DNA of 32,000 nucleotides, from assembly GCF_014696135.1 (NCBI RefSeq), contig NZ_JACJPP010000024.1:1-32000 (forward strand), written 5' to 3'. Shown here one piece after another: positions 4,242 through 25,023 of the stretch (positions are counted from its first letter, which is position 1; every line of letters begins with the position of its first letter). The notes under the pieces are model-generated. The model worked only from the letters and a program-made list of their open reading frames with translations. It did no database searches and had not been told where the DNA came from. The position numbers and the translations under genes are program-made. Origin of the DNA: Nodosilinea sp. FACHB-141 (lineage in GTDB: Bacteria > Cyanobacteriota > Cyanobacteriia > Phormidesmidales > Phormidesmidaceae).

Positions 4242-4979
4242 GTGACCAAAGACTTTTTCATTAGCTACAACAGAGCCGATGCCACCTGGGCTGAGTGGAT
4301 CGCCTGGGTGCTGGAGGAGCATGGCAAAACGGTCGTCATCCAAGCCTGGGACTTTCGCCCTGGGGGCAACTTTATTTTGGACATGCAGCGGGCGGCCCAA
4401 GACTGCGATCGCACCATTGCTGTCCTATCAGAAGACTATCTTAACGCCCTCTACACCCAGCCCGAATGGGCCGCTGCCTTCAAGCAAGACCCCACCGGTA
4501 TAGAGCGCAAACTTCTGCCCGTTCGCGTTGCCCTTTGCAAGCCCACTGGCCTGTTAGCTCCTCTGGCGTATGTAGATCTGGTGGGCAAGTCTGAGGCAGA
4601 AGCCGAAACCTTGCTGCTTGGAGCACTCCAGGAGCGCGCCAAACCCACCAGTCGCCCCAGCTTTCCTCAATCCGTACAACCCCAAGAGCGAATTACATCA
4701 GGCACAGTCACCTTCCCCCAGAACATCCCTGAGCAATCCGTCCAATCTGTCACTAGCAACACAGCCCTACGCCTTGCCCTGTTTCAAAACCTGGCTTCTC
4801 TCCCCAGCCCTCAGTTTGAACAAATCCTATTCGCCCTGAGCCCACCCCCCGGCAATGTGGCTTCGGCCCAGGCCCCCCAGGGCAACCGCGTCAAAGACCT
4901 GCTCGATTGGGCCACCAGCATTGGCCCTGGCCTAAGCGAAGTAGAAGCCATTTACAACCAAATCGCCCGCCCTCGCTAG
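4242..4979 (+). CDS. TIR-domain effector protein with C-terminal helical adaptor (effector-associated-domain-like) module
   Basis: GTG start. The N-terminus reads FFISYNRADATWAEWIAWVLEEHGKTVVIQAWDF...IAVLSEDYLNALYTQPEWAAAF, which fits the bacterial TIR pattern including the conserved W/E region. The last ~70 aa (LFQNLASLPSPQFEQILFAL...RVKDLLDWATSIGPGLSEVEAIYNQI) resemble the death-like adaptor domains that pair effectors with STAND NTPases. Confidence 0.8.
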   Translation: MTKDFFISYNRADATWAEWIAWVLEEHGKTVVIQAWDFRPGGNFILDMQRAAQDCDRTIAVLSEDYLNALYTQPEWAAAFKQDPTGIERKLLPVRVALCKPTGLLAPLAYVDLVGKSEAEAETLLLGALQERAKPTSRPSFPQSVQPQERITSGTVTFPQNIPEQSVQSVTSNTALRLALFQNLASLPSPQFEQILFALSPPPGNVASAQAPQGNRVKDLLDWATSIGPGLSEVEAIYNQIARPR

Positions 4980-7408
4980 CCTCTTCGGAATCAACTGGTA
5001 CCACACCGGAGAGGCGACCCCAGGTACCCGAGCTAGCTCAACCGCTGCCTTACCCCCGCAACCCCTTCTTCACTGGCAGAGAAGACCAGCTACAGGCCAT
5101 CCATGCGGCTCTCACCAGCCGAGGTCGAGCCGCCCTCTCTGGGCTGGGGGGTATTGGTAAAACCCAAACCGCTCTGGAGTATGCCTACCGCCATCAGGTT
5201 AAGTATGAACATGTGTTTTGGGTCCGAGCCGAACAGGAAACGGAGCTGATCACCGGATATGTGGCCCTGGCCAAGGCACTACAACTCCCTGGGCATCAGC
5301 AAGAGGATCAGCAGGCGATCGTCACCCTGATGAAACAGTGGCTGACTACCCACGACGGCTGGCTGCTGGTGCTCGACAATGCCGACGACCTACGCCAGCT
5401 GCGGCTCTACCTGCCCACTACGAACGGCCATATTCTACTCACTACCCGCGCCCAGGCCCTGGGCGACCTGGCCAAGAAGGTTGAGGTCACCCGCATGGAT
5501 GCCGATGAAGGAGCCTTACTGCTGCTGCGCCGTGCCAATGCGATTGCCGATGACGCCGACCTGGTCGACGCCTCAGACCATGACCAGGCCCTAGCCCATA
5601 CCCTCAATACCGAAATGGATGGCCTACCCCTGGCCCTCGACCAGGCCGGAGCCTACATTGAAGACCAGGTGCTTAGCCTAGACGAATACCTGGAGCTGTT
5701 TCGCACCGAAAAAGCCGAACTGCTGCAAGAACGGGGACAATTGGACCCAGATCACCCCAGCGTCACCGTAACCTTTACCCTGGCCTTTGAGAAAGTGGTT
5801 GCCGCCAGTGCCACCGCTGCCGCATTGGTGCGAGCCTGCGCCTTTCTAGCCCCCGATGCCATCCCTGAGGAAATTTTTAGTGAAGGGGCTGCAGCGTTTG
5901 AAGCGCCCCTCAGTACCCTGGCTGAGAGCAAACTGGCTCTATCCAAAGCCATTGCAGAAGCCGCTAGATTTTCCTTAATTAGCCGCAACCCGCTGACCAA
6001 AACATTGACTATTCATCGCCTGGTGCAGGAGGTGCTGAGATCGGCCATGGATGACAACCTCCAACGACAGTGGGCAGAGCAGGTCGTCGAGGCCGTAACG
6101 GCGGTGTTTCCCAATGCTGAATTTGAGAATTGGGTGCGGTGCGCTCGCCTAATTACCCAGGCCCAGGCCACCACACATATGAGCGCTGATTACGGGCTAG
6201 CCTCGGAAACAGCCGCTTTACTACTCATTCGCGCTGGCTATTACTACAACTCCCAGGGGCGGTACGGAGAGGCCGAACCCCTCTACCTGGAGGCCTTGAC
6301 GATGTATAAACAGCTGTTGGGGGAGGCCCATCCCGCTATCGCCGATAGCCTCAATAACCTGGCCGCGCTCTATGGTTCCCAGGGGCGGTACGGGGAGGCC
6401 GAACCCCTCTACCTCGAGTCCTTAGCGATGTATAAGCAGCTGTTGGGAGAGGCCCATCCTGAAGTCGCCACCAGTCTCAATAACCTAGCAGGGCTCTATC
6501 GTTTCCAGGGGCGGTACGGGGAGGCCGAATCCCTCTACCTGAAGGCATTAACGATGCGGAAGCAGCTGTTGGGGGAGGCCCATCCCAAAGTCGCCATCAG
6601 CCTCAATGACCTGGCTACGCTCTATCGTTTCCAGGGGCGGTACGGGGAGGCCGAACCCCTCTACCTTGAGTCCTTAGCGATGAGTAAGCAGCTGTTGGGA
6701 GAGGCCCATCCTGAAGTCGCCACCAGTCTCAATAACCTAGCAGGGCTCTACGAATTCCAGGGGCGGTACGGGGAGGCCGAACCCCTCTACCTCGAGTCCT
6801 TAGTGATGCGGAAGCAACTGTTGGGGAAGGTCCATCCCGAAGTCGCCGCCAGCCTCAATAACCTGGCCGCGCTCTATGGTTCCCAGGGGCGGTACGGGGA
6901 GGCCGAACCCCTCTACCTCGAGTCCTTAGCGATGAGTAAGCAGCTGTTGGGGGAGGCCCATCCCAAAGTCGCCATCAGTCTCCATAACCTGGCTGCGCTC
7001 TATCGTTCCCAGGGACGGTACGGGGAGGCCGAATCCCTCTACCTGAAGGCATTAACGATGCGGAAGCAGCTGTTGGGGGAGGCCCACCCCGAAGTCGCCA
7101 CCAGTCTCCATAACCTGGCTGCGCTCTATTGTTCCCAGGGACGGTACGGGGAGGCCGAACCCCTCTACCTCGAGTCCTTAGCGATGAGTAAGCAGCTGTT
7201 GGGGGAGGCCCATCCCTATGTTGCCAGTAGTTTGTTCAACTTGGGAGCCCTACGCTACAACCAGGGCCGCTACAGCGAAGCCCAGACACTACTCCTCCAA
7301 GCTCAACCTATTTACCTCACCAGCCTAGGCTCCCACCACCCCGCTACTCAGGCTCTCCAAAGCTGGCTTAATATGGTACAAGCGGCCTTGGACAGTCAGC
7401 CGCGCTAA
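4907..7408 (+). CDS. NB-ARC (STAND) NTPase with C-terminal TPR sensor array
   Basis: Motifs present are Walker A GLGGIGKTQ, Walker B WLLVLDNADD, LLTTR and GLPLAL, followed by 9 TPR units of 42 aa (QGRYGEAEPLYLESLAM.KQLLGEAHP.VA.SLNNLA.LY). The frame is open from 4820. The only canonical start before the P-loop is TTG at 4907, so the start is uncertain. Confidence 0.85.
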   Translation: MGHQHWPWPKRSRSHLQPNRPPSLASSESTGTTPERRPQVPELAQPLPYPRNPFFTGREDQLQAIHAALTSRGRAALSGLGGIGKTQTALEYAYRHQVKYEHVFWVRAEQETELITGYVALAKALQLPGHQQEDQQAIVTLMKQWLTTHDGWLLVLDNADDLRQLRLYLPTTNGHILLTTRAQALGDLAKKVEVTRMDADEGALLLLRRANAIADDADLVDASDHDQALAHTLNTEMDGLPLALDQAGAYIEDQVLSLDEYLELFRTEKAELLQERGQLDPDHPSVTVTFTLAFEKVVAASATAAALVRACAFLAPDAIPEEIFSEGAAAFEAPLSTLAESKLALSKAIAEAARFSLISRNPLTKTLTIHRLVQEVLRSAMDDNLQRQWAEQVVEAVTAVFPNAEFENWVRCARLITQAQATTHMSADYGLASETAALLLIRAGYYYNSQGRYGEAEPLYLEALTMYKQLLGEAHPAIADSLNNLAALYGSQGRYGEAEPLYLESLAMYKQLLGEAHPEVATSLNNLAGLYRFQGRYGEAESLYLKALTMRKQLLGEAHPKVAISLNDLATLYRFQGRYGEAEPLYLESLAMSKQLLGEAHPEVATSLNNLAGLYEFQGRYGEAEPLYLESLVMRKQLLGKVHPEVAASLNNLAALYGSQGRYGEAEPLYLESLAMSKQLLGEAHPKVAISLHNLAALYRSQGRYGEAESLYLKALTMRKQLLGEAHPEVATSLHNLAALYCSQGRYGEAEPLYLESLAMSKQLLGEAHPYVASSLFNLGALRYNQGRYSEAQTLLLQAQPIYLTSLGSHHPATQALQSWLNMVQAALDSQPR
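6252..7259 (+). repeat. tandem 126-bp coding repeat, 8 near-identical copies (TPR units), plus one diverged copy downstream
   Basis: The marker cccaggggcggtacgg recurs at 6252, 6378, 6504, 6630, 6756, 6882, 7008 and 7134, an exact 126-bp period. The copies are nearly identical at the nucleotide level. Confidence 0.9.
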
Positions 7409-7645: not shown

Positions 7646-8245
7646 ATGAAAATTATCACTGTGACTGGGTATAAAGGGGGCTGCGGCAAATCCATGACGG
7701 CGATCCACGTTGCGACCTACTTCAGTCGCCTTGGTGATGTGGTGCTGGTGGATGGCGACCCAAACCGTACTGCGATCGCATGGAGCGATCGTGGCCAGCT
7801 GCCATTCTTAGTGGCAGACGAGCGCAAAGCTATGAAAGTGGTGCAGGGCCGTGACTTCATTGTGATTGATACCCCTGCCCGGCCTGACTCATCTGACCTT
7901 AAGGAATTGGCCGACGGTGCCGATTTACTGATCCTCCCCACGGTGCCCGATGTAGTTTCCTTAGAGCCAATGCTGCAAACGGCTAGCGACTTGGGAAACG
8001 CTACTTACCGGGCGCTACTTACCATCGTTCCTCCTAAGCCCAGTCGGGAGGGCGAGACTATGAGGGCTGAGCTGAGCGATAACGGGTTGCCGGTGTTCAA
8101 AACCATGATTCGCCGTGCAGCAGGCTTTCAAAAGGCTGCTCTTGCGGGGGTGCCAGTGTCAGCACTCACCGGGCGCGATCGCATGGGCTGGCTCGACTAT
8201 GAGTCACTGGGCAAAGAAATCTTGGAGGTATTAGGTAATGGCTGA
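7646..8245 (+). CDS. parA: ParA/Soj-family partition ATPase (small, type Ib-like)
   Basis: 199 aa. It has the deviant Walker A ITVTGYKGGCGKS and Walker A'/B-like segments VLVDGDPN and FIVIDTP. The size and the downstream small RHH gene fit type Ib partition systems. Confidence 0.85.
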   Translation: MKIITVTGYKGGCGKSMTAIHVATYFSRLGDVVLVDGDPNRTAIAWSDRGQLPFLVADERKAMKVVQGRDFIVIDTPARPDSSDLKELADGADLLILPTVPDVVSLEPMLQTASDLGNATYRALLTIVPPKPSREGETMRAELSDNGLPVFKTMIRRAAGFQKAALAGVPVSALTGRDRMGWLDYESLGKEILEVLGNG

Positions 8246-9192: not shown

Positions 9193-11048
9193 ATGGCTAC
9201 TCTCATCGCCTCCTACAGCAGCTGCGCCTCTCGCATGACTGGGGGAGAACGACGGCTAGCCCAGCGGCTCGAAGCAAAATTAGAGGATGACCACTTGCTC
9301 TGGTATGACGTACCCGTTGGACCCAAAGCACTGCACCCTGATTTCATCCTCCTGCACCCCTCACGGGGTCTCTTCGTGCTGGAGGTCAAAGACTGGAAGC
9401 TAGACACCATCAAGGCGGCGAACCCTGATGAGTTTGAAATTGAAACCCAATCAGGTCAGCGCAAAACTGTTGATAGTCCCCTTGTCCAGGCGCGAGATTA
9501 CGTCCTGGCTATGTGCTCCCTGCTGGAGAAAGACCCGGAGTTAGTGCAGCCCGAGGGCCGCTACCAGGGCAAGCTCATTTGCCCCTACGCTTATGGTGTA
9601 GTGCTGCCCAACATCACCCGCCGTCAGTTCGACTCACAACTGGCGCTGGGCCAGGTGATTCATGCCAACTTGGTCATCTGCAAAGACGAAATGACCGAGG
9701 CTGTAGACCCAGGGGCCTTTCAAGAACAGATCTGGGCCATGAGCCACTACAACTTTGGCACCACCCTCACCAACGAGCAGATCGATCGCATCCGCTGGCA
9801 CCTATACCCAGAGATGCGAATCTCCGCCAAACAACTCTCTCTCTTCCCCAAGGAACCTGCCGACACCCTACAGACCGCTATCCCGCAGGTGCTCAAAGTC
9901 ATGGACTTGCAGCAGGAGCAGCTGGCTCGCAGCCTGGGCGAGGGCCACCGAGTTATTCATGGTGTCGCTGGTAGCGGCAAAACCCTGATTCTGGCCTACC
10001 GCTGTCAACACCTGGCCGAAGCCATGCAGACCGTTTTGGTGCTGTGCTTTAACGTGGCGCTGGCGTCCCGACTGCGATCGCTGATGGCAGAAAAGGGGCT
10101 AACCAAGCTGGTTACCGTCCGTCATTTTCATGGCTGGTGTACCGAAGTGCTGAAGCAGCACCAGCTGCCGCGCCCTGATTACCGGCAATACAAAGGCGCT
10201 GAGTACATCCAACGGCTAGAGGCTGCGGTGGTGGCTGCCGTCGAGGCGGGAAAGATTCCCACTGGCCAGTATGGGGCGGTGATGGTCGATGAGGGCCACG
10301 ACTTTGCACCGGAGTGGTTGAAGCTGGTCGCACAAATGGTGAACCCCTTCACCGATTCCCTGCTGGTGCTCTACGACGATGCCCAAAACCTCTACGGCCA
10401 ACGGGCAAACCGTGAATTCAGCTTCAAGAGCGTGGGTATCAAAGCCCAGGGTAGAACGACTATCCTCAAGCTCAACTACCGCAACACCGCCCAGGTGCTG
10501 ATGCTGGCCTACGAGTTCGCCAAAGAAGTCATGCAGCCCATCAGCCCTGATGAGGACATACCGCCGCTGGTGCAGCCCAACAGCGCCGGGCGCGAGGGGC
10601 CGGTGCCGGAGTTGGTAAAGTGCCGGAGCTATAAGGAAGAGGTAAATCACATCATCCAGAGAGCCCAGCAGCTGCAGGAGCGAGGCATCCCCTGGAATGA
10701 GATGGCGATTATCTACCGCGACAACTGGATGGGAGAGAAGGCATTCCAGCAGCTCCAGCAGGCTGGAATGCCTGTGACTGGCTCAACCAAAGCAGCAGCA
10801 GCCGTAACTTTGACCCCTCGACCCAAAGTATCAAGCTGATGACGATGCACGCCAGCAAGGGGCTAGAGTTTCCGGTGGTGTTTATCCCTGGGCTAGGCTA
10901 TCTGCCAAACCGCTATAACGATGAGGCTGATGAGGCCCGGTTGCTCTATGTGGCTATGACCAGGGCGATTGAGGTGCTGGTGTTGAGCTGCGATCGCAAG
11001 TCGGTGTTTGCTGAGCGCCTGGATGGGGCGTTGGGGAAGGTGGGGTGA
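9193..11048 (+). pseudogene. NERD-domain / SF1 (UvrD/Rep-like) helicase, interrupted by a frameshift near 10772-10780
   Basis: The N-terminus is NERD-like (HPDFILLHPSRGLFVLEVKDW). Helicase motifs are GVAGSGKT, VMVDEGHDF and LNYRNT. Frame 1 reads sensibly to ...QQAGMPV and then runs as nonsense to TGA at 10837-10839. The -1 frame, open from 10701, reads WLNQSSSSRNFDPSTQSIKLMTMHASKGLEFPVVF...LLYVAMTRAIEVLVLS, the UvrD-type C-terminal motifs. Confidence 0.7.
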
Positions 11049-11184: not shown

Positions 11185-11925
11185 ATGTCAGACAGGAAAT
11201 TTCACTCCATTAAGGCGTTACCCTGCAATGACTACAAGGAAGCAGCGCCCGAAATGGATCGATCCATAAACTACGTCAAGTCCAAACAAAGGGTCGCTGA
11301 CCATGGGGAGGTGTTTACCCCAGCATGGATGGTGGAGGCGATGCTTGACCTGGTGAAGCATGAGACAGAGCGTATTGACTCCCGCTTTTTGGAACCGGCC
11401 TGTGGAAGCGGCAACTTTCTAGTGCAGATCATACGGCGCAAGCTGGCGGCGGTGGAGCTTAAGTACAGCAAGTCTGACTTCGAGCGGCGGCACTATGCAT
11501 TGCTTGGGCTGATGTGCATCTACGGGATCGAGCTGCTAGCGGACAACATTGTCGAGTGCCGTGCCAATGTGCTGGAGATTTTTGCCGAATACCTGGATCT
11601 GGATGAGGAAGACGATCTCTATCGGGCCGCATCCTATGTGCTGTCTCAGAACCTGGTGCATGGCGATGCCCTGACGATGCGTACCCACAACGACCAGCAA
11701 ATTACCTTTGCCGAGTGGGGCTATTTGGGGAAAGGCAAGTTTCAGCGGCGCGACTTCCTGCTCGACTCCCTTACCCAATCATCAAGCTATGTAGTGGATT
11801 CCCCGTTGTTTGCCCACCTGGGGAAGCATGAGATTTTCACACCGATGAAGACCTACCCGCCAATGACGGTGAGCGAGCTAGTCGCTGCCGAACACGGTGA
11901 CGTGCTGAAGGAGGACTCTCTATGA
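11185..11925 (+). CDS. DNA-methyltransferase-like protein with AdoMet motif I but no catalytic NPPY motif
   Basis: 246 aa. It contains GEVFTPAWMVEAMLD, FLEPACGSGNFL (a canonical motif I) and VHGDAL. No (N/D)PP(Y/F) motif occurs anywhere. Its stop overlaps the next ATG (ATGA at 11922-11925). Confidence 0.6.
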   Translation: MSDRKFHSIKALPCNDYKEAAPEMDRSINYVKSKQRVADHGEVFTPAWMVEAMLDLVKHETERIDSRFLEPACGSGNFLVQIIRRKLAAVELKYSKSDFERRHYALLGLMCIYGIELLADNIVECRANVLEIFAEYLDLDEEDDLYRAASYVLSQNLVHGDALTMRTHNDQQITFAEWGYLGKGKFQRRDFLLDSLTQSSSYVVDSPLFAHLGKHEIFTPMKTYPPMTVSELVAAEHGDVLKEDSL

Positions 11926-13514
11926 GTGATCAGGTTGGCTTCGCGCTGCGTGGACGCAACCCGGATGTGCTGACGTGTATTGCTAACCTCTCAAACGATG
12001 AGGTGTTTACGCCGCCGGAGTTTGCTAATCGGATGCTAGATACGGTGGCGGAGGCGTGGGCGGCGAACCATGGCGGGGCTAACTTGTGGGCAGATAAAAC
12101 GGTGCGGTTTCTCGACCCCTGCACAAAGTCGGGAGTGTTTTTGCGGGAGATAACCAGCCGCCTAGCGGAGGGGCTCAAGGCAGAGATACCAGACCTTCAG
12201 GAGCGCGTAGATCACATCGTCACCCAGCAGGTATTTGGCATCGGCATCACCCATCTCACCAGTTTGTTGGCAAGGCGAAGTGTGTATTGCAGCAAGCACG
12301 CTAATGGGGAGCATTCCATTGCTAAAAGCTTGAATAGCAATGAGGGCAATATCTGGTTCCAGCGTACGGAGCATAGTTGGGGTGCCACAAAATGCAAGTT
12401 CTGTGGCGCGCCAAGAGCAATTTGGGATCGTAAGGCAGAACTTGAGAACTATGCTTATGCGTTTATTCACACCGATAACATAAAAGCTCGGGTTGCCAAA
12501 TTGTTTGGAGGTGAAATGCAATTCGACGTGATTATCGGGAATCCCCCGTATCAGATGAAGGGAGGGGCAGGTGGTACAAGCGATTCATCCATCTACCACT
12601 TGTTTGTGGAGCAGGCGAGGCGGCTGGAGCCGCGCTACCTCAGCATGGTTATTCCTTCGCGCTGGATGGCTGGTGGGCGTGGATTAGAAGATTTTCGCAA
12701 GGAAATTCTTGGTTGTCGACAGATCAGAACATTGGTCGACTACCCGAACTCGGCTCAGGTTTTCCCTGGCGTCGATTTGAAGAGTGGAGTCTGCTACTTC
12801 TTGTGGAGCCGTGAGTATTACGGAGATTGTTTGGTTACCCTCATTCGTGATGATATCGCGGTTGGCCCTACGGAGCGCAAGCTCGATGAGTACGACATAT
12901 TTATCCGAGATGTCCGTTCTACAAGTATTCTCAAAAAGGTTCTTAAGATGCATGAGCCTAGCTTTCAGGAATTGTTGACGGGCGATACTCCATTCGGACT
13001 AGCCTCTAACTTCACTGCTTTTAGGCGTGGTGATCCTGATGATGGCGAGGTGAGGATTTACTCCAGATCAAATGCGGGTCGCCGAACAGGAGCAATGAAG
13101 CGCTCGCTCATAGCTAAGAACACACATCTCATCGACACGTGGAAAGTGCTTGTACCGAAAGCCGGGCCAGGTAACAGCGGTGGGCACGTTCTACCTGACA
13201 TGGTGCTAGGCAAGCCGAGTGTTGCCGAACCAAATTCCGTTTGCACTCAAACATGGATTGTTGCTGGACCCCTGACATCAAAGAAGGAATCTGAGATTGT
13301 TGCTGGCTATATACAGACAAGATTTTTCCGTTTCCTTGTGTCGCTGCGGAAAATTAGTCAAGACGCAATGAGAGGCGTTTATCGGTGGGTTCCACAACAG
13401 GAATGGAATCAGGACTGGACGGACGATGTGCTCTATATGAAGTACGGAATAACAAAGGATGAGCAGGAGTACATCGCAACGATGATCAGGGCAATGGACG
13501 AGTGTAATGACTAA
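11922..13514 (+). CDS. N6-adenine DNA methyltransferase (gamma class, Eco57I/TaqI-like)
   Basis: 530 aa. It contains VFTPPEFANRMLD, FLDPCTKSGVFL (motif I with the first Gly replaced by Lys) and FDVIIGNPPYQ (motif IV), followed by a target-recognition-like C-terminal half. Confidence 0.8.
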   Translation: MSDQVGFALRGRNPDVLTCIANLSNDEVFTPPEFANRMLDTVAEAWAANHGGANLWADKTVRFLDPCTKSGVFLREITSRLAEGLKAEIPDLQERVDHIVTQQVFGIGITHLTSLLARRSVYCSKHANGEHSIAKSLNSNEGNIWFQRTEHSWGATKCKFCGAPRAIWDRKAELENYAYAFIHTDNIKARVAKLFGGEMQFDVIIGNPPYQMKGGAGGTSDSSIYHLFVEQARRLEPRYLSMVIPSRWMAGGRGLEDFRKEILGCRQIRTLVDYPNSAQVFPGVDLKSGVCYFLWSREYYGDCLVTLIRDDIAVGPTERKLDEYDIFIRDVRSTSILKKVLKMHEPSFQELLTGDTPFGLASNFTAFRRGDPDDGEVRIYSRSNAGRRTGAMKRSLIAKNTHLIDTWKVLVPKAGPGNSGGHVLPDMVLGKPSVAEPNSVCTQTWIVAGPLTSKKESEIVAGYIQTRFFRFLVSLRKISQDAMRGVYRWVPQQEWNQDWTDDVLYMKYGITKDEQEYIATMIRAMDECND

Positions 13515-13845: not shown

Positions 13846-16339
13846 GTGTCAGAAAGTAACCCACTCGATAAACTGCCGTCGCCTGACTTCTCAACGAAAC
13901 GCATTTACGCCTACCAGTTGAGCCTCAGCGAGCTTGCTAGGCGTATCAAAGTTGGCGAAACCGAACGTTCGGTTCGTAGCCGCGTGAAGGAGCAGGTGAA
14001 CACGGCTGGCCTATCGGATGTGGTGAAAATCTTGATGGACGAACCTGCCGTTGCGGCGGACGGGCGGACCTTCAGAGACGTTGATGTCCATGAGGTCCTC
14101 AAGCGGATGCCCGGGGTTACGCACCGGACAGAGGGCGGAGGGGTGGAGTGGTTTGAGTGTTCTCTGGAGCAAGTCCAATCCGCCTACAATAGCGTCTACG
14201 CAGGGGAGACCTTCACCAGGGTTCGCGACAAGAGTTTTGGTCTCAGAGGCGAACAGATTCGAGCTATTGAGATGGCCGATGCCTACCTTACCTTCGCGTT
14301 GGCCGACGGGCGAGAGGCACGGTTCCTGTGGAATGCAAAGATGCGCTTCGGAAAAACCTTTGCTGCTTATCACCTAGCCATGCGCCGCAATGCGAAGCGG
14401 GTGTTGGTCGTCACCTACAAGCCGGCCGTCGAAGACGCGTGGCGGACCGATCTGGAGACGCACACCGACTTCGAGGGGTGGGTCTTCTTTTCTCGTGCGT
14501 CCACCGAGGACCCTTCATTCATTGCGACCGACACCCCGCTTGTCTGTTTCTCGTCCCTCCAAGACTTGCGGGGGCGAACGGTGGATGGCGCAATCAAGGA
14601 GCAGAACCAGTGGATACACGACGTAGTGTGGGATCTCGTCATCGTGGACGAGTATCACTACGGCGCGTGGAACGATGCCACCCAAGAGCTTCTGTCGGGC
14701 GAGGTAGGAGGCGGAGAAACTGAGCTCGCGAACGCACGCGGGGCTGATTCGGAAGAAGATGATTCAAAGGATCTCGTTGAACGGCTAGACAACATCAAGG
14801 GTAAAGTCTTCCTTTGCCTCTCCGGCACGCCATTCCGGGCAATAGCGAGCAATGAGTTTTCTGACGAGCAGATCTTCAACTGGACCTATACCGACGAGCA
14901 GAGAGCCAAGGAAGAGTTCGCGGCCAACTATCCTGACCAACGGAACCCCTACGGTGCGCTGCCACAGATGAACCTTCTCGTCTATCAGCTACCTAAGAAA
15001 CTTCGTGAGGTGGCAATCGGAGGCAAGCGCAATGAGTTTGATCTCAACACCTTCTTTGCAGCTACGGGCAACGGCAAGAGAGCATCATTCACACATAGGG
15101 ACCAAGTTCAGGCTTGGTTGGACTGGCTCAGAGGCCAAGACGTAGGTGCCGCCGTTCAAGTTTTGGATGTAAGCACTGCCAAGCCATTCCCGTACGCGGA
15201 CACCAACGTCCTTCCTTACATGAACCACTCAGTTTGGTTCCTACCAGCAGTCGCGTCTGTATTTGCGATGCGGAATCTCCTAGCTGAGCCTCACAATGCC
15301 GTTTCTTGGGGACAATTCACTGTATTGCCAGTGGCGGGCAAACAAGCTGGTGATGGTGCTGACGCGCTACCACCTGTCCGAGAAGCTATCTGTAGCGGCT
15401 ACGATACGAAGACAATCACGCTCACATGCGGAAAACTCTTGACCGGCGTCACAGTACCTCAGTGGTCAGCCATTTTGATGCTCAAAAACCTCGAGGCACC
15501 TGAGAGTTACTTCCAGGCTGCGTTTCGCGTTCAGTCCCCATGGTCAGTGTGGAACCCGGATGGCACCAATCCTAACGAAGAGAGAGTTCTTAAGCCCGCC
15601 TGTCTGGTGCTAGACTTCGCACCGACACGGGCTCTTCGTCTCTTCGCCGATTACGGCATGCGGTTAGGAAGAGGTATGGACGCCGACAACGACGTTAAGG
15701 AGTTAAGCAAATACTTGCCGGTCCTCGGCTTTGATGGCACAAGGATGCAGCCAGTGGATGTGGACGAGATCATCGATACCGCTTTTCAAACTACCACTGT
15801 CGACACCCGCTGGATGCAGTCTAGGAAGTTCATCAACCCAGACGCTTCAAAGCTTGAGCTACTCAGTGAGGAGGTTCGACGGGCACTTATTTGCGTTACA
15901 AAGCAGCGGCAATCGGACCGCAGTGCTGATGAAGATGAAAACGTCATTAACAAAACACCGGAACTTAAGGAGGGTGAAGGAAATACTAGCAACGACAGTG
16001 AAGATGGCGGCTCAAACACCGATCAAGAGGACGATCTGCCAGAAGAAGACCTTGCGAATCGACTGAGCTTCATCGCGAAGCGCATTAACGCATTCATGTA
16101 CTTATCTGACGACATTGAAAAGAACCTCAAAGATGTTTTAGCCACGGACGAGGCTGAACTCTTTCGCATGGTAATGGAACTCCGGAAGGACGAAATGGCC
16201 GCCCTTGTAGATGCGGGCCTATTCCACGAGCAGGCAATGCGACTTGCAATCCATCAGTTCAGGCGCGCCGATGTCGCTTCCTTCCGTTATACCGGCCTTG
16301 ATCCGCGTTCTGGCCCCGAGAGCATTAAGGGAAGCACGG

Positions 16340-16347
<8 letters not shown>
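13846..16347 (+). CDS. GIY-YIG/T5orf172-like nuclease domain fused to SF2 (DExH, ResIII-like) helicase; paralog 1
   Basis: GTG start, 833 aa. The N-terminal module reads RIYAYQL..IKVGETERSVRSRV...VEWFEC. Helicase motifs are NAKMRFGKT (Walker A), IVDEYH (motif II), LSGTPF (motif III) and QAAFRVQSPW (motif VI). The C-terminal linker is acidic. Confidence 0.8.
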
Positions 16348-18904
<2,557 letters not shown>

Positions 18905-19053: not shown

Positions 19054-19491
19054 ATGAGTGATCGTACATATTGGCTATGTCTCTTCAACCACACCACCTG
19101 GCAAGAGTTTTTAGACGCTGGCGGGGCAGTGATGGGCTTTCCAGAGACCAGACAAAATACTGTTAGGCAAATTAAACCAGGAGACTACCTCTTGGCTTAC
19201 ATGACGGGAGTCTCTCGATGGATAGCAGTGCTGGAGGTAATGGATGAACCTTATGACGATCTCACCCATATTTGGAAGCAAGCACTGTTCCCTTGCCGGG
19301 TCAAGGTTCAGGTAATTACCAGCGTTGATATTGAATCAGGAATACCAGCACTTTCTCTGAGTAAAAATCTCAAGATGTTTGACAATATGAAAACGCCTAA
19401 CTGGGGGTTATTATTCCGTACCGCTCCAAAGAAGTTAATCTCTGAAGATGGTGAGGCGATTGTCAAGGCCGTTGAGGATGCGGCGGCGTAG
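19054..19491 (+). CDS. EVE/PUA-like domain protein candidate
   Basis: 145 aa. It reads TYWLCLFNHTTWQEF...IKPGDYLLAYMTGVSRWIAVLEV...FPCRVKV. This fits the YWL...W...pGD...Y...G pattern of PUA-superfold EVE/ASCH-type domains. The assignment is tentative. Confidence 0.5.
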   Translation: MSDRTYWLCLFNHTTWQEFLDAGGAVMGFPETRQNTVRQIKPGDYLLAYMTGVSRWIAVLEVMDEPYDDLTHIWKQALFPCRVKVQVITSVDIESGIPALSLSKNLKMFDNMKTPNWGLLFRTAPKKLISEDGEAIVKAVEDAAA

Positions 19492-19606: not shown

Positions 19607-20035
19607 TCAGGCTCCTTGCCTCAGCTCGTAAACCCGCTGCCATTCTTCAGTCGTAACCTTGAAATTGGTGGAGTTGGGTTGGCGAATCACTATCAAGGTG
19701 CTCAAAACAGGGTCTTGCTTTAGCTCACTCCGCAGCAGAGGCCGATCCAACAACTTATCGGTAAAGCGAATGGTGGCAAACGGTTTCTCCCCTAAGCGAG
19801 ACTTATCCAGCCAGTAGCCAATATCCGGCAAATCTGCCATCAGCTTGGGAACTTCGATTATGTCTGCGATCGCATATAACCCCGCCTCTTTGCCCGATAT
19901 CCAGATCAGTACCCCATCACCAGGCTGCATCTCTTTGGCGTACCGGGTGACCAACCAGGGCATCTGGGTAAAGTCTCGAATGCCGTCAATGATGCGGTAA
20001 TACTTTGGGTTTCCCTGGAAGAGCCAGTAAGCCAT
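19607..20035 (-). CDS. EVE-domain protein
   Basis: The start was moved to the internal Met at 20035. The track start at 20128 overlaps the recombinase gene and adds an Arg/Cys-rich leader. MAYWLFQGNPKYYRIIDGIRDF...MQPGDGVLIWISGKEAGLYAIADI is a typical EVE (PUA-like) N-terminal pattern. Confidence 0.6.
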   Translation of the reverse strand: MAYWLFQGNPKYYRIIDGIRDFTQMPWLVTRYAKEMQPGDGVLIWISGKEAGLYAIADIIEVPKLMADLPDIGYWLDKSRLGEKPFATIRFTDKLLDRPLLRSELKQDPVLSTLIVIRQPNSTNFKVTTEEWQRVYELRQGA

Positions 20036-20084
20036 GGATGTACATCGCCAGAACGTCTCTAGATAAGGGTATGTCACCTGGCCT

Positions 20085-20624
20085 CTACAACTGCGCGATC
20101 GCATCCACCTTCTCTTCCTCCGACACATCGAGATACCGCTGGAGCGCCGCCATTGACGACCACCCGCCCAGGTCTTGAATCGCTTTCAGCCGGACCCCCG
20201 CCTTATCCAACCGAGTCGCCCAGGTGCGCCGGTTGCTGTGGGTGCTGTAGCCCCGCAGTCCTAAGAGATCGCACGCCTTACGCAGCGCCGCATCACAGGC
20301 CTGCCGAGTAATCGGCCCTTGCCCATCCCGCCCTGGAAACAGATACCCCCGACTTGGCAACTCTGCCGCCTCCAGCACCGCCCTCAACTTGGGGTGAATT
20401 GGCACTGCTCGCGTCCGCTTTGTCTTCGTCGTCGCCTTGCGCAGCACCAGCGTATTGCCTACCACGTCCTCCGCCCGCAGCTGTCGCGCCTCGCTCACCC
20501 GGCAGCCGGTGTAGTAGCAGATCGAGAAGAGCGATCGCATTTTAGGGCTGAGTTCCCCCATCACCTGCTCGAACTGATCCGCCGACCAAATTTCCGCCTG
20601 GTCGTGGCGATTTTGCTTCGGCAC
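20085..20624 (-). CDS. short tyrosine recombinase (catalytic domain only)
   Basis: GTG start, 179 aa. It contains YYTGCRVSEARQL (Arg I), THSNRRTWAT (HxxR) and GGWSSMAALQRYL (W...Y nucleophile). There is no N-terminal core-binding domain. Confidence 0.8.
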   Translation of the reverse strand: MPKQNRHDQAEIWSADQFEQVMGELSPKMRSLFSICYYTGCRVSEARQLRAEDVVGNTLVLRKATTKTKRTRAVPIHPKLRAVLEAAELPSRGYLFPGRDGQGPITRQACDAALRKACDLLGLRGYSTHSNRRTWATRLDKAGVRLKAIQDLGGWSSMAALQRYLDVSEEEKVDAIAQL

Positions 20625-20796: not shown

Positions 20797-20828
20797 ATGC
20801 CAGCTGATTGGATCCAATCAGCTGGCAT
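20797..20828 (-). terminator. perfect 32-bp palindrome 39 bp downstream of the 876-aa gene; terminator or protein-binding site
   Basis: ATGCCAGCTGATTGGATCCAATCAGCTGGCAT. I verified it base by base as self-complementary around 20812/20813. On the minus strand it is followed by UUGCUAUUAUC. Confidence 0.45.
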
Positions 20829-20866: not shown

Positions 20867-23497
20867 TTAAGCGGCTTCATCCTCTAACGGTGGCTCTGGC
20901 AAGTCTTTGTTTCCCTGCTGAGAGATATTCATTAAGGTTTGGTTGATAAAGTCAACATTAGCCTCTACGACAGGAGCCATCTTTTCAACTGATGTGCGCA
21001 AGTCATAGTCATACTTATGTCGATCCTCAGAGTGTTGGAGAAGAAGCGCAGCTGATTCTCGATACTCTGGAAATTGACCTGTAAACATTTTTCGAAGGTT
21101 AGCGGGAGGTACATCGACGCCAGTCCACCACTCGATCATCCATTTAATACGTTCAGCCCAGGATTTAGGACCTGGGACTGGGCGTGTGCTACGTGCCATT
21201 CGGAAAAAGTAATTGTGATTAACTGGTCCACGTGCTGAACGTCCCCAATCTAACCATTGACGTACATACCCATAGAGATCCTTGTTGCCAAACTGGAGAT
21301 TAGGTAGCTCTACCCAAAACCCATCATTGTTTAGCAGTACTGTCGGCATAGATGATCCAGTTTTATAGTCATCAACGCCATGATGGACATAAAATCTTAT
21401 CTCGTCTGCCTTTCCATTAGCCCTTAATTCATCCGCCGGTATAAAGCCATTGGAGTATAGGTATCCTTCCTTAAAAGTTTTCCCAATCTCAAGCTCATAA
21501 AACGTGCGTGACCGAGATGGAAAAATAACAGAGAAGGCGATACTCAAGAATCGCTGTAGCTCTTGAGCCATCGCTCTTTCAGGCCGTGTCTTTTCGGTAT
21601 AACCTAACTTTGCTGCAGAACTTCGGATGTAAATCGTGTCTTGTTCAACTCGCCACCGCTGCATCTCCATAGCATAAATAACTTGTGACCAATGAACCGA
21701 TTTCTCGTGATAATTGACAGTAGCTGGCTGTCTATCAGATTCATCCTTAAGCTGTGCTTGTAAGTTGAGCAGACGTAGTAAAATCGGAATGTTTTGTGGT
21801 ACCGGAAATTCATCCGTGCCCAAAACATCTCGATATAAAAACTTGGCCATTGCAATTGCTACACTCACTCGCTTTTGCTGAGAAGCTGCTTTTCCGCCGG
21901 TAAAGTCTAGATACCTGTGTATGCGTTTAATATCGTTATCAGCTGTGTCATAAGCTTGCTGCTTTCCTGATTCTTCGGCAAAACGAAATGCTTCAAAATT
22001 ATCGAAATCCCTAAGTCTAAATTTAAGCTGACATACAGAAATCAATGCCTCAAAGCATAAATCTTCTAACGATACACCTTCATATCGATGAAGCCAGCCC
22101 ATATATTGGCGTATTTTCTCAACTTCCCCTTTCAGTGCGCCTGGGGTAACTTTTTTCCCTGGCTTGTTCGCCCGATGGTTAGAGTAATCTAGGATTTGTT
22201 GAGCCAAGCGGTCGTTGGTGTAATCATTAGGAAACCTCTTTGCCCCAAGTTGGTGAACTGGTGCTTGCTCCTGACTCAGCTTTAGACCAGATGGGCTAGC
22301 TTTTTTTTCAACTGGGCGATCTCTAAAGGTTCGCAAGGTAATTTCTGCTTTAGCAATATATCCAAAGAAACCTTCTGCTATTGCCCACTCTAACCAGCTG
22401 TTAACCTTCGATATGTATGTTTTTTTGCTTCGATCGGTGATGGAAATACTTGCTAAGTAATCAGCAAAGATCTGTAGTAGGTGCTGATTATTGTTCATTT
22501 CTACAGTCTCAAGAAAATCCAAAGCCAGTTGGAAATCTTCAGCGGTTGCTCTTTGCCCAGAAATGTGAGGGCCACCTAAAGCTGGCACGATATACCTGAC
22601 AATTATGCTTTTAAAGAAGGAGGCTTGCTTGGCATCGAGGGTTAGAGTGTACTCAGCAAAGGCCTCCAGTGTTGTAGCTGCGTGTCTGGGGTAGACCATC
22701 TCTCCGGTAGGTGCTGGAGGCTCAGTAGAATTAGGGTATTCGGGTTTAGCTTCAGGTTCAGGAAACGGCAGATAGCCATGCTCTCGAACCGAATTTAGTA
22801 AGGCCCTTAGCAGCCGACGCACACGAGTTTCCTGAGCTTCAGATCGCTCATAGATTCGCAAGACCCGAGTGGCAATAGTCAAAGCCTCTTGCAGGTATTC
22901 CAAAGGCACCTGCTCTAGGTAGGTTAGTCCGGCCTCAATCTCATCTACCCTCAAAGGATTATGGAGGGGCACCGGTCCGCCACAACCAGGTACGAAATAT
23001 TGGACGATCGCGTAAAGCGCGGACTTTCGGATTTGTTCATCTAGTGGCTGCAGGTAGATCTCAACAATTTGCCGAGTTGAATAAGTCAGCTCCTGAGAAC
23101 TAAGAGGCCCAACAGGGATGTCACTGCAAAGATCTAGAGGAATAAGATTTTCAGGTATAGGGAGAGATCCCTGTTGTCGTCCCCAGTCAATAAGGCCTCG
23201 CAGGTTGCGGCGAACTCGCTCTTGTTGTGCTTGCGATGTATTGTTAGATTCAAATATTGGAGACAAGACTTCTGGGATGCGGTTTAGTTCTTCAGCCTTC
23301 ATATTCGCTAGGAAAGATAACCCAGCATCAACATCCTGGTTTGATAGTTTGGTTCGCTTGTTGGCTAATGGACATGGTCCGCCCATTCCAGGGACCGCGT
23401 AACGAAATAATGCATTCCGAAAGTCGTGCATTTCTGATGCTTCATCCTGTTCATCAAGATGTTTGTAGTAGCGTGTGCAAAGTGTTTTAGCTTGCAT
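20867..23497 (-). CDS. large tyrosine-recombinase-like protein (876 aa) with triplicated N-terminal module
   Basis: Low-GC ORF. The C-terminal domain carries FPSRSRTFYELEIG (Arg I), DDYKTGSSMPTVLL (Lys hairpin), PANLRKMFTG (xxxR, with His replaced by Ala) and LLQHSEDRHKYDY (His, then Tyr at +9), in the canonical order and spacing. The N-terminus holds three ~105-aa repeats. Confidence 0.65.
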   Translation of the reverse strand: MQAKTLCTRYYKHLDEQDEASEMHDFRNALFRYAVPGMGGPCPLANKRTKLSNQDVDAGLSFLANMKAEELNRIPEVLSPIFESNNTSQAQQERVRRNLRGLIDWGRQQGSLPIPENLIPLDLCSDIPVGPLSSQELTYSTRQIVEIYLQPLDEQIRKSALYAIVQYFVPGCGGPVPLHNPLRVDEIEAGLTYLEQVPLEYLQEALTIATRVLRIYERSEAQETRVRRLLRALLNSVREHGYLPFPEPEAKPEYPNSTEPPAPTGEMVYPRHAATTLEAFAEYTLTLDAKQASFFKSIIVRYIVPALGGPHISGQRATAEDFQLALDFLETVEMNNNQHLLQIFADYLASISITDRSKKTYISKVNSWLEWAIAEGFFGYIAKAEITLRTFRDRPVEKKASPSGLKLSQEQAPVHQLGAKRFPNDYTNDRLAQQILDYSNHRANKPGKKVTPGALKGEVEKIRQYMGWLHRYEGVSLEDLCFEALISVCQLKFRLRDFDNFEAFRFAEESGKQQAYDTADNDIKRIHRYLDFTGGKAASQQKRVSVAIAMAKFLYRDVLGTDEFPVPQNIPILLRLLNLQAQLKDESDRQPATVNYHEKSVHWSQVIYAMEMQRWRVEQDTIYIRSSAAKLGYTEKTRPERAMAQELQRFLSIAFSVIFPSRSRTFYELEIGKTFKEGYLYSNGFIPADELRANGKADEIRFYVHHGVDDYKTGSSMPTVLLNNDGFWVELPNLQFGNKDLYGYVRQWLDWGRSARGPVNHNYFFRMARSTRPVPGPKSWAERIKWMIEWWTGVDVPPANLRKMFTGQFPEYRESAALLLQHSEDRHKYDYDLRTSVEKMAPVVEANVDFINQTLMNISQQGNKDLPEPPLEDEAA

Positions 23498-23766
23498 GGT
23501 TAAACCTAAAGGTAAGAATTGCGTAGTGGTATAGCAGGTTGATACATGTGCATTCCTGCTATGAAAACCTGCTTAGTAAAACTGAGCTATCGGCTTTATA
23601 GTTGCAAGCCATAGGCATGCGTGAACCTCAAACTTGCTCAATCAATTGGCCGAATAGTTCAAAAATACTATAGTGATGATATTTTATGTTGCTTTAATTT
23701 GCAATCTAATTTGCTCTGAAATTTAGTGCAAATATCTCTTTTCTTTTGGTTTTTATGTTCCCGCTG

Positions 23767-23801
23767 TATTCCCACGGTACTCCCGTGATATTCCCACAGT
23801 A
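23767..23801. repeat. direct repeat TATTCCCAC(G/A)GTA x2 with 22-bp spacing
   Basis: The copies lie at 23767-23779 and 23789-23801. CCGTGAT also occurs twice (23784 and 23805). The array lies between the 876-aa gene start and the 44-bp palindrome. Confidence 0.7.
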
Positions 23802-23818
23802 ATACCGTGATGCTCTGA

Positions 23819-23862
23819 CGATAATTCGGCGATATTATCGCGATAATATCGCCGAATTATCG
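23819..23862. repeat. perfect 44-bp palindrome
   Basis: CGATAATTCGGCGATATTATCG|CGATAATATCGCCGAATTATCG, with all 22 base pairs checked individually and the centre at 23840/23841. The inner 16-mer ATTATCGCGATAATAT recurs at 23856-23871, 22 bp from its first copy at 23834-23849. Confidence 0.95.
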
Positions 23863-24686
23863 CGATAATATGATGCAACCATTGCTTCTTTAGTTTTATT
23901 TGTACTGGTCAATAATTGCGCTAATGGCCAGACTACCTTTTCTAGTTGCTAATGATTAGGCTAGACAGCTGGCGTAGAACCTTGTTCAAATTTATGATTG
24001 TGGTAGAAATGTAATTTTTGCTATGAAGAGAGACGCCTGCAAGGCAAAACTACTTGTTCTAACTTGATTCTGAAGAATTATTTCATTGGATAGTTTAGCT
24101 GGATTTGAGTGATAGCATAGATCTATTAAATGATCTGTATAAGGTAATAAAGGAAATGATTAGCTATTTAGTTTTTAGATGAGCGTCTAGTTCGACGACG
24201 CAATACTATTACGCTCGTAATGCAATATTTCCCAAGGTAAAATAATTGATTTGTAAGGGTTTAAGGGCTGTTGAGGGTAGTGATGGGCTAAAACCCTTGC
24301 TCAACACGGCCAAAATCGCTGAAATCCTTATATAGCAATGGTTTTGCTTGGGTCGTTTAATGAGGGAGATGATGGCTAGCCGTCATCCCCCTTCTTGTTG
24401 AAAAGGCAGAAGTGCCCCTCTCAGTTTGACAGTGTTGTTAGTATTTTGATCGGGGGCTTGGTAGAGCTCAATATTTTGCCTTGTAGTGATTTTGGTTAGT
24501 CTTTCCATCTGGTAGCGGCGGACTGTACTTGTGCTCATCAGTGCTGTAGCTTGGCGTCGAACCGATAAGGAGCCATCTCAAATTTATCTTTGAGAAAAAA
24601 CACAGCTGTTTGTTGTTTTAAAGATCTTGTTTGAATACTGTTTGTAGCGCTTCAAAGATATTGATGTACAAGGCTTTCAGCGATCG

Positions 24687-24767
24687 TTTCGGCAGAGCTC
24701 TGCCGAAAGTGACCTCGTTTCAGCAGGATTCTGCCGGGTTATGCCCGTTTTCTGGCAGAACTCTGCC
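24687..24767. promoter_or_regulatory. operator-like inverted repeats GGCAGA-N2-TCTGCC x2
   Basis: A perfect 22-bp palindrome TTTCGGCAGAGCTCTGCCGAAA lies at 24687-24708. A second copy GGCAGAACTCTGCC lies at 24754-24767, and a half-site TTCTGCCGG lies near 24729. Confidence 0.4.
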
Positions 24768-25023
24768 GAGCATTTTTGAGCAGAGGCTCAGCTAAGTGGG
24801 AAGACCAGTGCACTTCGATACCCCACTGCATAGGCTATGAGAAAATGTGCTCTGTGCCAGTAGAGCTAAAAAATGGACTAGATTTGGCCCGTTCTGCTCT
24901 GTGCCAGTTGTCTCAAAGCCTGATTCCGCTGTTCTATCTAAAAGTCGTAGCCAAACCTCTCTATTGACTTGAATGCTTTGTGTAGAGAGGTCTTTCGCAG
25001 CAGGTCCAACCGTGGAGTAGTTG

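Follow-up and report, generated by a model that had tools for sequence, protein, structure and literature searches.

A divergent tyrosine recombinase with a triplicated N-terminal module on probable plasmid DNA of Nodosilinea sp. FACHB-141

A stretch of 32,000 nucleotides from the cyanobacterium Nodosilinea sp. FACHB-141 (contig NZ_JACJPP010000024.1, positions 1 to 32,000; referred to below as the window) contains a minus-strand open reading frame at 20867-23497 that starts with ATG and encodes a large tyrosine recombinase of 876 amino acids (aa). The protein is predicted, from family profiles and structural models, to be a catalytically competent but divergent tyrosine site-specific recombinase, and its N-terminal part consists of three copies of one module. 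The gene lies on DNA that is very probably plasmid DNA, judging from its homologies, and a perfect 44-bp palindrome is located upstream of it. The function proposed here, to which about an even chance is given, is that of a plasmid-backbone site-specific recombinase for multimer resolution or maintenance that would act on the upstream palindromic site. What is new is a phylum-restricted, plasmid-borne branch of tyrosine recombinases with a novel accessory module and a clade-specific change in the active site.

Domain architecture, fold and family

When searched alone, the 876-aa protein gave nothing significant in Pfam, NCBIfam, PDB (phmmer), PHROGs or PADLOC, and Pfam Phage_int_SAM_4 at residues 515-561 stayed below threshold (E=0.035). 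The architecture therefore belongs to no characterised family, as had been stated in an earlier, sequence-only reading of this stretch. A profile of 71 family sequences matched E. coli XerD (1a0p) with E=2.4e-8, and the alignment was in register, with 'PHeLRkiyvT' opposite 'PHVLRHAFAT' and 'HS...Y' opposite 'GHSDLSTTQIY'. The distant members P0064 and P0094 exceeded the gathering score of Pfam Phage_integrase (PF00589).

A core model was obtained by folding residues 275-876 with the 71-sequence alignment (predicted local distance difference test [pLDDT] 91; predicted template-modelling score [pTM] 0.78). The only high-probability PDB matches of this model in Foldseek were archaeal Xer 4a8e (prob 0.99), Cre 2crx and XerA. 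The Cre Holliday-junction complex 2crx was matched with prob 0.98 and a template-modelling score of 0.58 in 448 columns over the core-binding (CB) and catalytic (CAT) domains, and Tyr-recombinase, DNA_BRE_C and integrase proteins of the viral structure library BFVD were matched at prob 1.0. The full-length model had a pTM of 0.35, and its Foldseek matches were mostly noise. The models place a helical bundle at residues 429-600. Together, the profile and model matches indicate that the C-terminal ~450 aa are a genuine CB plus CAT tyrosine-recombinase unit; the fold proposed in the sequence-only reading was thus borne out by the XerD profile match, the Xer and Cre structures in Foldseek and the Pfam scores of the distant members. 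The parts of the protein are listed below; HMM stands for hidden Markov model and dN/dS for the ratio of nonsynonymous to synonymous substitution rates.

20867-23497, minus strand: open reading frame of the large tyrosine recombinase, 876 aa (homolog alignments, dN/dS).
23153-23485, minus strand: N-module copy A, residues 5-115, helical, ~105 aa, with a VPGxGGP loop (BLASTP, module HMM, dN/dS).
22760-23077, minus strand: N-module copy B, residues 141-246 (BLASTP, module HMM, dN/dS).
22358-22669, minus strand: N-module copy C, residues 277-380, ortholog of the single module in the ~600-aa members (module HMM, profile alignments, core model).
22214-22261, minus strand: linker motif PVHxLGAKxFPxDYxN, residues 413-428, with L417, A419, K420, F422, P423, D425, Y426 and N428 invariant.
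21698-22213, minus strand: CB-type helical domain, residues ~429-600 (Cre alignment, core model).
20903-21697, minus strand: tyrosine-recombinase catalytic domain, residues ~601-865, expanded by insertions when compared with Xer and Cre (family profile, fold matches).

The triplication was recovered by two methods, with essentially the coordinates given for it earlier. In BLASTP, module A (residues 1-125) matched module B (residues 131-260) with E=3e-14 and 37% identity and module C (residues 266-395) with E=2e-7, and modules B and C matched each other with E=1e-5. An HMM built from the module found exactly three copies, at the residues listed. The N-module is all-helical and about 105 aa long, with a conserved VPxxGGP loop and a last helix of the form R..R..LK.F..W; both the VP(G/A)xGGP motif and the R..R..L...W helix are present in the module consensus. 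Between the modules and the linker motif, residues 385-412 are modelled as a disordered linker of low pLDDT.

Each module had been said to end like the SAM-like core-binding helix of integrases. This hint was reproducible, as the last helix gave sub-threshold matches to 3nrw, in its SAM-like domain (E=0.68 when the module profile was used and 0.06 for the core profile), and to residues 3-51 of XerD (independent E value 140). These matches did not suffice to establish a SAM-like identity. Profile searches with the module found no Pfam family and no significant PDB match, and hhalign comparison with the CB and catalytic regions of the family itself gave a probability below 3%, against 100% for the positive control. 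The notion of a diverged CB domain was therefore rejected at the sequence level, and the real CB domain is at residues ~429-600. A word-index search with the module profile returned one fragment. The best label for the N-module appears to be that of an orphan domain.

In comparisons with the closest homologs, dN/dS was 0.12-0.25 for the whole gene and 0.08-0.55 for the individual N-modules (0.13-0.22 for copy A), and it was 0.05-0.16 in the CB and CAT regions, with CAT the most constrained. These low values, overall and per module, indicate that the gene is intact and functional and that purifying selection acts on the gene and on all three modules.

Only 11 proteins in a collection of 5.8 billion sequences matched over the full length, one of them identical and named only 'hypothetical protein [Cyanophyceae]'. 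A scan of the genome collection with the alignment of close homologs gave 8 loci. An exhaustive profile search extended the family to 462 clusters at 50% identity, whose proteins mostly have ~600 aa and align to profile positions ~285-880, which comprise one N-module, the linker and the C-terminal region. One module was counted in 116 of 178 retrieved proteins, two in 7 and three in 28, and L014 and L021 are natural variants that lack module A. Since most relatives carry one module, the window protein falls into a small clade whose ancestral single module was triplicated. All named members are cyanobacterial and are annotated 'hypothetical protein' or 'site-specific integrase'; the family is uncharacterised and apparently restricted to cyanobacteria. 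It has no dedicated Pfam or NCBIfam model, and no description of it was found in the literature.

Two metagenomic proteins, P0130 and P0141 (1369-1399 aa), carry the module-CB-CAT unit at residues ~710-1225, behind an N-terminal extension of ~700 aa that has no Pfam match. P0141 has an additional partial module at its extreme N terminus.

Catalytic residues and the change at positions 799 and 706

The codons of interest, all on the minus strand, are as follows.

21512-21514, minus strand: R662, candidate catalytic residue.
21380-21382, minus strand: H706.
21362-21364, minus strand: K712, candidate catalytic residue.
21101-21103, minus strand: A799, at the His position of HxxR.
21092-21094, minus strand: R802, candidate catalytic residue.
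21032-21034, minus strand: H822, candidate catalytic residue.
21005-21007, minus strand: Y831, candidate nucleophile.

R662 is conserved in 145, K712 in 143, R802 in 144, H822 in 137 and Y831 in 142 of 146 aligned members, and all five residues are invariant in 11 close homologs. For K712, R802, H822 and Y831 this agrees with their earlier designation as catalytic (94-100% of the 146 members). The first Arg had been sought at R664, which is kept in 116/146 members only and is Q, S or K elsewhere, so R662 is the better candidate for Arg-I. Y829 had been considered beside Y831 as the nucleophile; it is not conserved across the family, which leaves Y831 as the candidate. From the alignments, the predicted catalytic set is thus R662, K712, R802 and H822, with Y831 as the putative nucleophile.

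The alignment confirmed that Ala799 occupies the HxxR His position in the window protein. The HxxR His is not universal in the superfamily, as Lys takes its place in type IB topoisomerases and Tyr in ResT. Of 99 members of the wider family, 55 have His and 27 have Lys at position 799; of 105 single-module proteins, 59 have His and 30 have Lys there. No triple-module protein (0/25) has His at this position. All of them (25/25) have His706, which is found in 4/105 single-module proteins and is placed six residues ahead of K712 on a beta-hairpin. This distribution suggests that the triple-module clade lost His799 and gained an invariant His706. The swap was probably a single evolutionary event and is for this reason a lead rather than statistical proof of compensation. 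The loss of the His had earlier been read as a trait of telomere resolvases; it proved to be peculiar to the subclade, and most of the wider family keeps the canonical HxxR.

The orphan N-module, present in one to three copies, and the clade-wide exchange of His799 for His706 together constitute a natural experiment on the gain of accessory domains and on the tolerance of active-site rearrangement in tyrosine recombinases.

Plasmid context and the upstream palindrome

In a tblastn search of 72,556 plasmids, the family was found on ten cyanobacterial plasmids of 15-159 kb, and there was no match among 50,697 phage records. All hits with a known replicon are on plasmids and none on chromosomal islands. 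In the circular, 27-kb plasmid D of Trichormus variabilis, a primase-like gene and a gene for a 'replication-related protein' come after a full-length homolog. A homolog of the latter gene is convergent with the recombinase homolog in pANACY.05, and in Geminocystis pGM3709_02 the homolog adjoins parA.

The window itself has a 567-aa protein (1625-3328, plus strand) that is 38% identical to the 'replication-related protein' of plasmid D and pANACY.05 (E=4e-84 and 3e-89) and has no Pfam or PHROG match. This protein family is a candidate uncharacterised plasmid initiator of cyanobacteria that co-occurs with the large recombinase. The window also contains a ParA-type ATPase gene (7646-8245), and its ABC-transporter flank has 81% DNA identity to a 158-kb Leptolyngbya plasmid. 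On the basis of the Rep-related homolog, ParA and the identity to the Leptolyngbya plasmid, the window is very probably plasmid DNA with a candidate initiator of its own, which argues against the recombinase being the Rep protein. The recombinase gene and 1.9 kb of upstream non-coding DNA form a ~4.7-kb island with a G+C content of 0.42-0.45, compared with 0.57 for the rest of the window; similar contrasts were seen at L003 and L011. Between plasmids the gene alone is conserved, and its surroundings are otherwise unrelated.

In the orientation of the gene, the upstream region contains, in this order, the 44-bp palindrome within an array, four 11-bp repeats and a promoter-like match. A further palindrome follows the stop codon.

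23819-23871, no strand: perfect 44-bp palindrome (23819-23862) in a 22-bp-periodic array of CGATAAT/ATTATCG half-sites, candidate core or binding site.
23759-23802, no strand: four tandem 11-bp repeats, TCCCGCTGTAT, TCCCACGGTAC, TCCCGTGATAT and TCCCACAGTAA, with the palindrome 16 bp away; candidate accessory (arm-type) sites.
23676-23704, minus strand: best sigma-70-like promoter match, TTGCAA-17-TATCAT, a consensus match only, the number of such matches not being above that in shuffled sequences.
20797-20828, minus strand: perfect 32-bp palindrome 39 bp past the stop codon, with a 14-bp stem, a 4-nt loop and a T-rich tail.

The 44-bp palindrome is located 322 bp upstream of the ATG, and its arm is unique in the window. 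The 11/22-bp periodic repeats span ~110 bp. Core sites of tyrosine recombinases consist of inverted arms of ~10-11 bp around a 6-bp centre, and additional motif copies resemble accessory sites, as in Tn4430 TnpI/IRS. The palindrome behind the stop codon was considered as a second recombination site and rejected, an intrinsic terminator being the simpler reading.

Palindromes recur upstream of other family genes. When perfect palindromes whose arms measure 10 nt or more were counted at 15 loci, 6/18 lay within the 600 bp upstream of family genes, which make up 3.4% of the sequence (binomial p=2e-5). Plasmid D has a 28-bp palindrome at -398, L014 a 26-bp palindrome at -110 and L011 a 45-bp inverted repeat at -538, and a 36-bp inverted repeat is found at -336 in Geminocystis, whose protein is 22% identical. 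A core of the form CTTGYA-(TAGCTA or GATATC)-TRCAAG is common to four Nostocales loci, where two to four further half-sites lie close by, and in plasmid D the exact CTTGYA-type half-site occurs upstream of the gene only. The 11-bp iteron array was also considered as a feature of the family and was not reproduced in other loci.

Several further repeats were observed in the 1.9-kb upstream region, in which Rfam found no significant RNA. Non-coding DNA at 24182-24344 is 71% conserved with the 5' end of the metagenomic contig L020. A 306-bp segment between imperfect inverted repeats of 32 nt (24315-24346 and 24653-24684) resembles a miniature inverted-repeat transposable element in its arrangement and has no significant Rfam match. 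The stretch 24687-24769 contains a 22-bp perfect palindrome, TTTCGGCAGAGCTCTGCCGAAA, and, at a distance of 63 bp, GGCAGAnCTCTGCCGA for a second time; TGCTCTGTGCCAGT is repeated exactly at 24848 and 24895. On a Cylindrospermum plasmid (L001, 8644-8801), ~1.2-1.35 kb upstream of the homolog, 11-bp-phased CGTCCCCAC units occur within two 42-bp direct repeats; the units are reminiscent of the TCCCAC-type 11-bp repeats of the window.

Downstream of the recombinase gene, a minus-strand gene at 20085-20624 encodes a 179-aa Phage_integrase catalytic domain (Pfam E=2e-25) without a core-binding domain. It has R...HxxR...W...Y, a GTG start and a 44-nt overlap with the next gene, and its G+C content of ~0.62 is unlike that of the neighbouring large gene. 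A degenerate 189-aa integrase occupies the same relative place on the opposite strand at L021. The two copies are not orthologous and that of L021 is degenerate, and the mini-integrase was rejected as a dedicated partner of the large recombinase. Two back-to-back EVE-domain genes (PUA-like, modified-base reader; 19054-19491, plus strand, and 19607-20128, minus strand), neither with a PADLOC match, adjoin the integrase remnant. In the ResIII/DEAD-box helicase open reading frame at 16211-18904, nucleotides 16811-18888 are 75-77% identical to plasmids of Sphingopyxis (Alphaproteobacteria) and Corynebacterium (Actinobacteria), which points to a plasmid gene having recently been transferred across phyla. 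Cargo of a defence type, including restriction-modification genes, is found at 4907-7408, 9193-10839 and 11185-13514 and comprises an NB-ARC/TPR (STAND-like) gene, a NERD-UvrD helicase and a split Eco57I/MmeI-type methyltransferase.

Proposed function, alternatives and known systems

If the enzyme is a plasmid-backbone recombinase, the palindrome ~320 bp upstream of the gene would be gripped at its inverted half-sites by the CB and CAT domains, with cleavage by Y831 through a 3'-phosphotyrosyl linkage. In a plasmid dimer, which would contain the site twice in direct repeat, strand exchange between the two copies would then yield monomers. The tandem N-modules would probably bind neighbouring repeats or each other, giving a defined synapse and a selective reaction, and they may also autoregulate (repress) the recombinase gene. 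The palindrome as target, resolution as the reaction and the role of the N-modules are the inferred parts of this proposal. What the analysis showed is the gene itself, its triplicated module, fold and catalytic residues, its plasmid setting, and the recurrence of palindromes and motif clusters upstream of family genes.

Several observations weigh against it. Apart from short motifs, upstream DNA could not be aligned between loci, even where the proteins are 60-78% identical, and phylogenetic footprinting of the 44-bp palindrome in homologous loci failed. The closest homologs with upstream sequence (L019 and L020) have no long palindrome, and no locus but the window has a well-developed 11-bp array. 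The enrichment of palindromes is partly an effect of non-coding DNA, as intergenic DNA is generally palindrome-rich. A perfectly symmetric site gives no intrinsic directionality, and the palindrome is no more than a candidate for binding or recombination. His799 is missing in the window protein, for which His706 has a candidate compensating role. Several family plasmids also carry a canonical tyrosine recombinase of ~300 aa or a serine resolvase, which are possible dimer resolvers.

A more ambitious version of the proposal is tentative and rather unlikely. Here the N-modules would be a new sequence-reading DNA-binding domain that, on phased repeats beside a palindromic core, would act as a topological or directional filter, so that plasmids could be resolved or maintained self-sufficiently without host accessory proteins, and in the triple-module clade the general acid/base His would have moved from 799 in the HxxR box to 706 in the Lys hairpin. 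Such a system, if real, would be notable in a phylum of which parts lack Xer.

The main alternative, itself improbable, is an integrase or mobility enzyme of a small gene-plus-site cassette that inserts into plasmids or fuses and separates replicons. The ~4.7-kb island, with its counterparts at two other loci, is consistent with such a cassette, as are the conservation of the gene alone between plasmids and the annotation of distant members as 'site-specific integrase'. The truncated integrase genes that adjoin the large gene in the window and at L021 suggest a recombination hot spot. However, no flanking direct repeats or att-like duplications around the gene and no tRNA target were found in the window, and no conserved excisionase-like small partner gene (Xis or recombination directionality factor) was found across the loci compared. 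The hits with known replicons are on plasmids rather than chromosomal islands, and a search of plasmids for an empty site matched the ABC-transporter flank only.

It is less likely still that the protein is mainly a DNA-binding or architectural factor (regulator, partition or origin factor), its chemistry weakened by the loss of the His and its modules reading the 11/22-bp repeats. The absence of His799 from 25/25 triple-module proteins, the upstream repeats and the position on plasmid backbones near replication and partition genes are consistent with this. However, the five catalytic residues are invariant in the subclade and the CAT domain is the most constrained region, which one would not expect of dispensable catalysis. 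In addition, the repeats are clear of the promoter-like site, being placed ~55-115 bp upstream of it, and the window has Rep-like and ParA genes of its own.

A plasmid replication initiator that nicks or melts an origin made of the palindrome and the iteron-like repeats is very improbable. The 11-bp repeats and the palindrome do adjoin a large plasmid-backbone gene, which is often near the record start or near replication genes. However, the window and at least two homologous plasmids have a separate, well-conserved Rep-related protein, some also a primase, and homologous loci lack a conserved iteron array. To our knowledge, proteins of the tyrosine-recombinase fold are not established as plasmid initiators.

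The least probable candidate is a telomere resolvase (protelomerase), hinted at in the sequence-only reading, which would resolve the perfect palindrome so as to leave two hairpin ends, each covalently closed. In N15, telRL adjoins telN, and here a perfect palindrome is located just upstream of the gene for a large protein that lacks the HxxR His. Hairpin telomeres are said to occur in cyanobacteria (PMC3558466), and a 2026 paper describes a small Nostocales plasmid with a terminal open reading frame similar to an annotated telomere resolvase (PMC13603067). Several grounds count against this candidate: Pfam, a PDB profile search (E up to 10) and Foldseek against PDB and BFVD returned Xer, Cre and integrases and no telomere-resolvase family or structure (TelK, TelA or ResT); the palindromes are intact, internal and bordered by unique flanks in the window and in the circular plasmids NC_021575 and NZ_AP014823, whereas a constitutively resolved site would be the end of a molecule or contig; and the record of pANACY.05, although flagged 'linear', lacks terminal inverted repeats and ends inside its last gene.

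Little is understood of cyanobacterial plasmids, and most of their maintenance functions lack annotation. The present family appears to be a recurrent backbone gene of these plasmids. A self-contained system of recombinase and site, if that is what the family represents, would account for the resolution of multimers of these plasmids, and it could also yield an orthogonal recombination tool for the engineering of cyanobacteria.

Compared with known systems, the protein resembles TelK, TelN, TelA and ResT in its related chemistry, in its large size (TelK and TelN), in the perfect palindrome by the gene and in the non-His residue at HxxR. It differs from them in that no sequence or fold match favours them over Xer and Cre, the replicons are circular with the palindrome intact, and no terminal hairpin signature was found. 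In the heterobivalent integrases (lambda Int and Tn916 Int) and in TnpI/IRS, extra binding parts or motif copies give directionality, and the Nostocales loci, with a core palindrome and additional half-sites, have a TnpI/IRS-like layout. However, TnpI is small and without extra domains, the arm-binding domain of lambda Int is a beta-sheet whereas the N-modules are all-helical, and neither the Xis partner nor the att duplication of the heterobivalent integrases was found here.

Xer (XerC/D and archaeal XerA) and Cre share with the window protein the CB plus CAT core and the R-K-(H)-R-H-Y site and are its best profile and fold matches. Cre/loxP of the P1 plasmid prophage is also alike in that a plasmid-borne enzyme is accompanied by an inverted-repeat site next to its gene, the site being a candidate in the present case. 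In contrast to Xer and Cre, the window protein is three times larger, the family carries one to three N-modules and a linker motif, large insertions are located between Arg-I and Lys and between Lys and Arg-II, and His-II is replaced in the clade. Distant relatives scored ~20-30 bits against NCBIfam Xer models with cut-offs of 220-335, and the window protein gave no hit. By size, extra domains and model scores, the protein falls outside the Xer/'Cyan' simple tyrosine recombinases (Smyshlyaev 2021).

RitA of the recombinase-in-trio (RIT) elements has two sequential CB domains (Smyshlyaev et al. 2021, PMC8138268). It differs from the present family in that its repeated unit is a CB domain, whereas the N-module is not detectably one and occurs in up to three copies besides the CB domain. 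No trio of recombinase genes is present here either, but one truncated integrase nearby that is not orthologous between loci. Nevertheless, RitA sets a precedent, being a 'simple' tyrosine recombinase whose helical, DNA-binding N-terminal domain has undergone tandem duplication.

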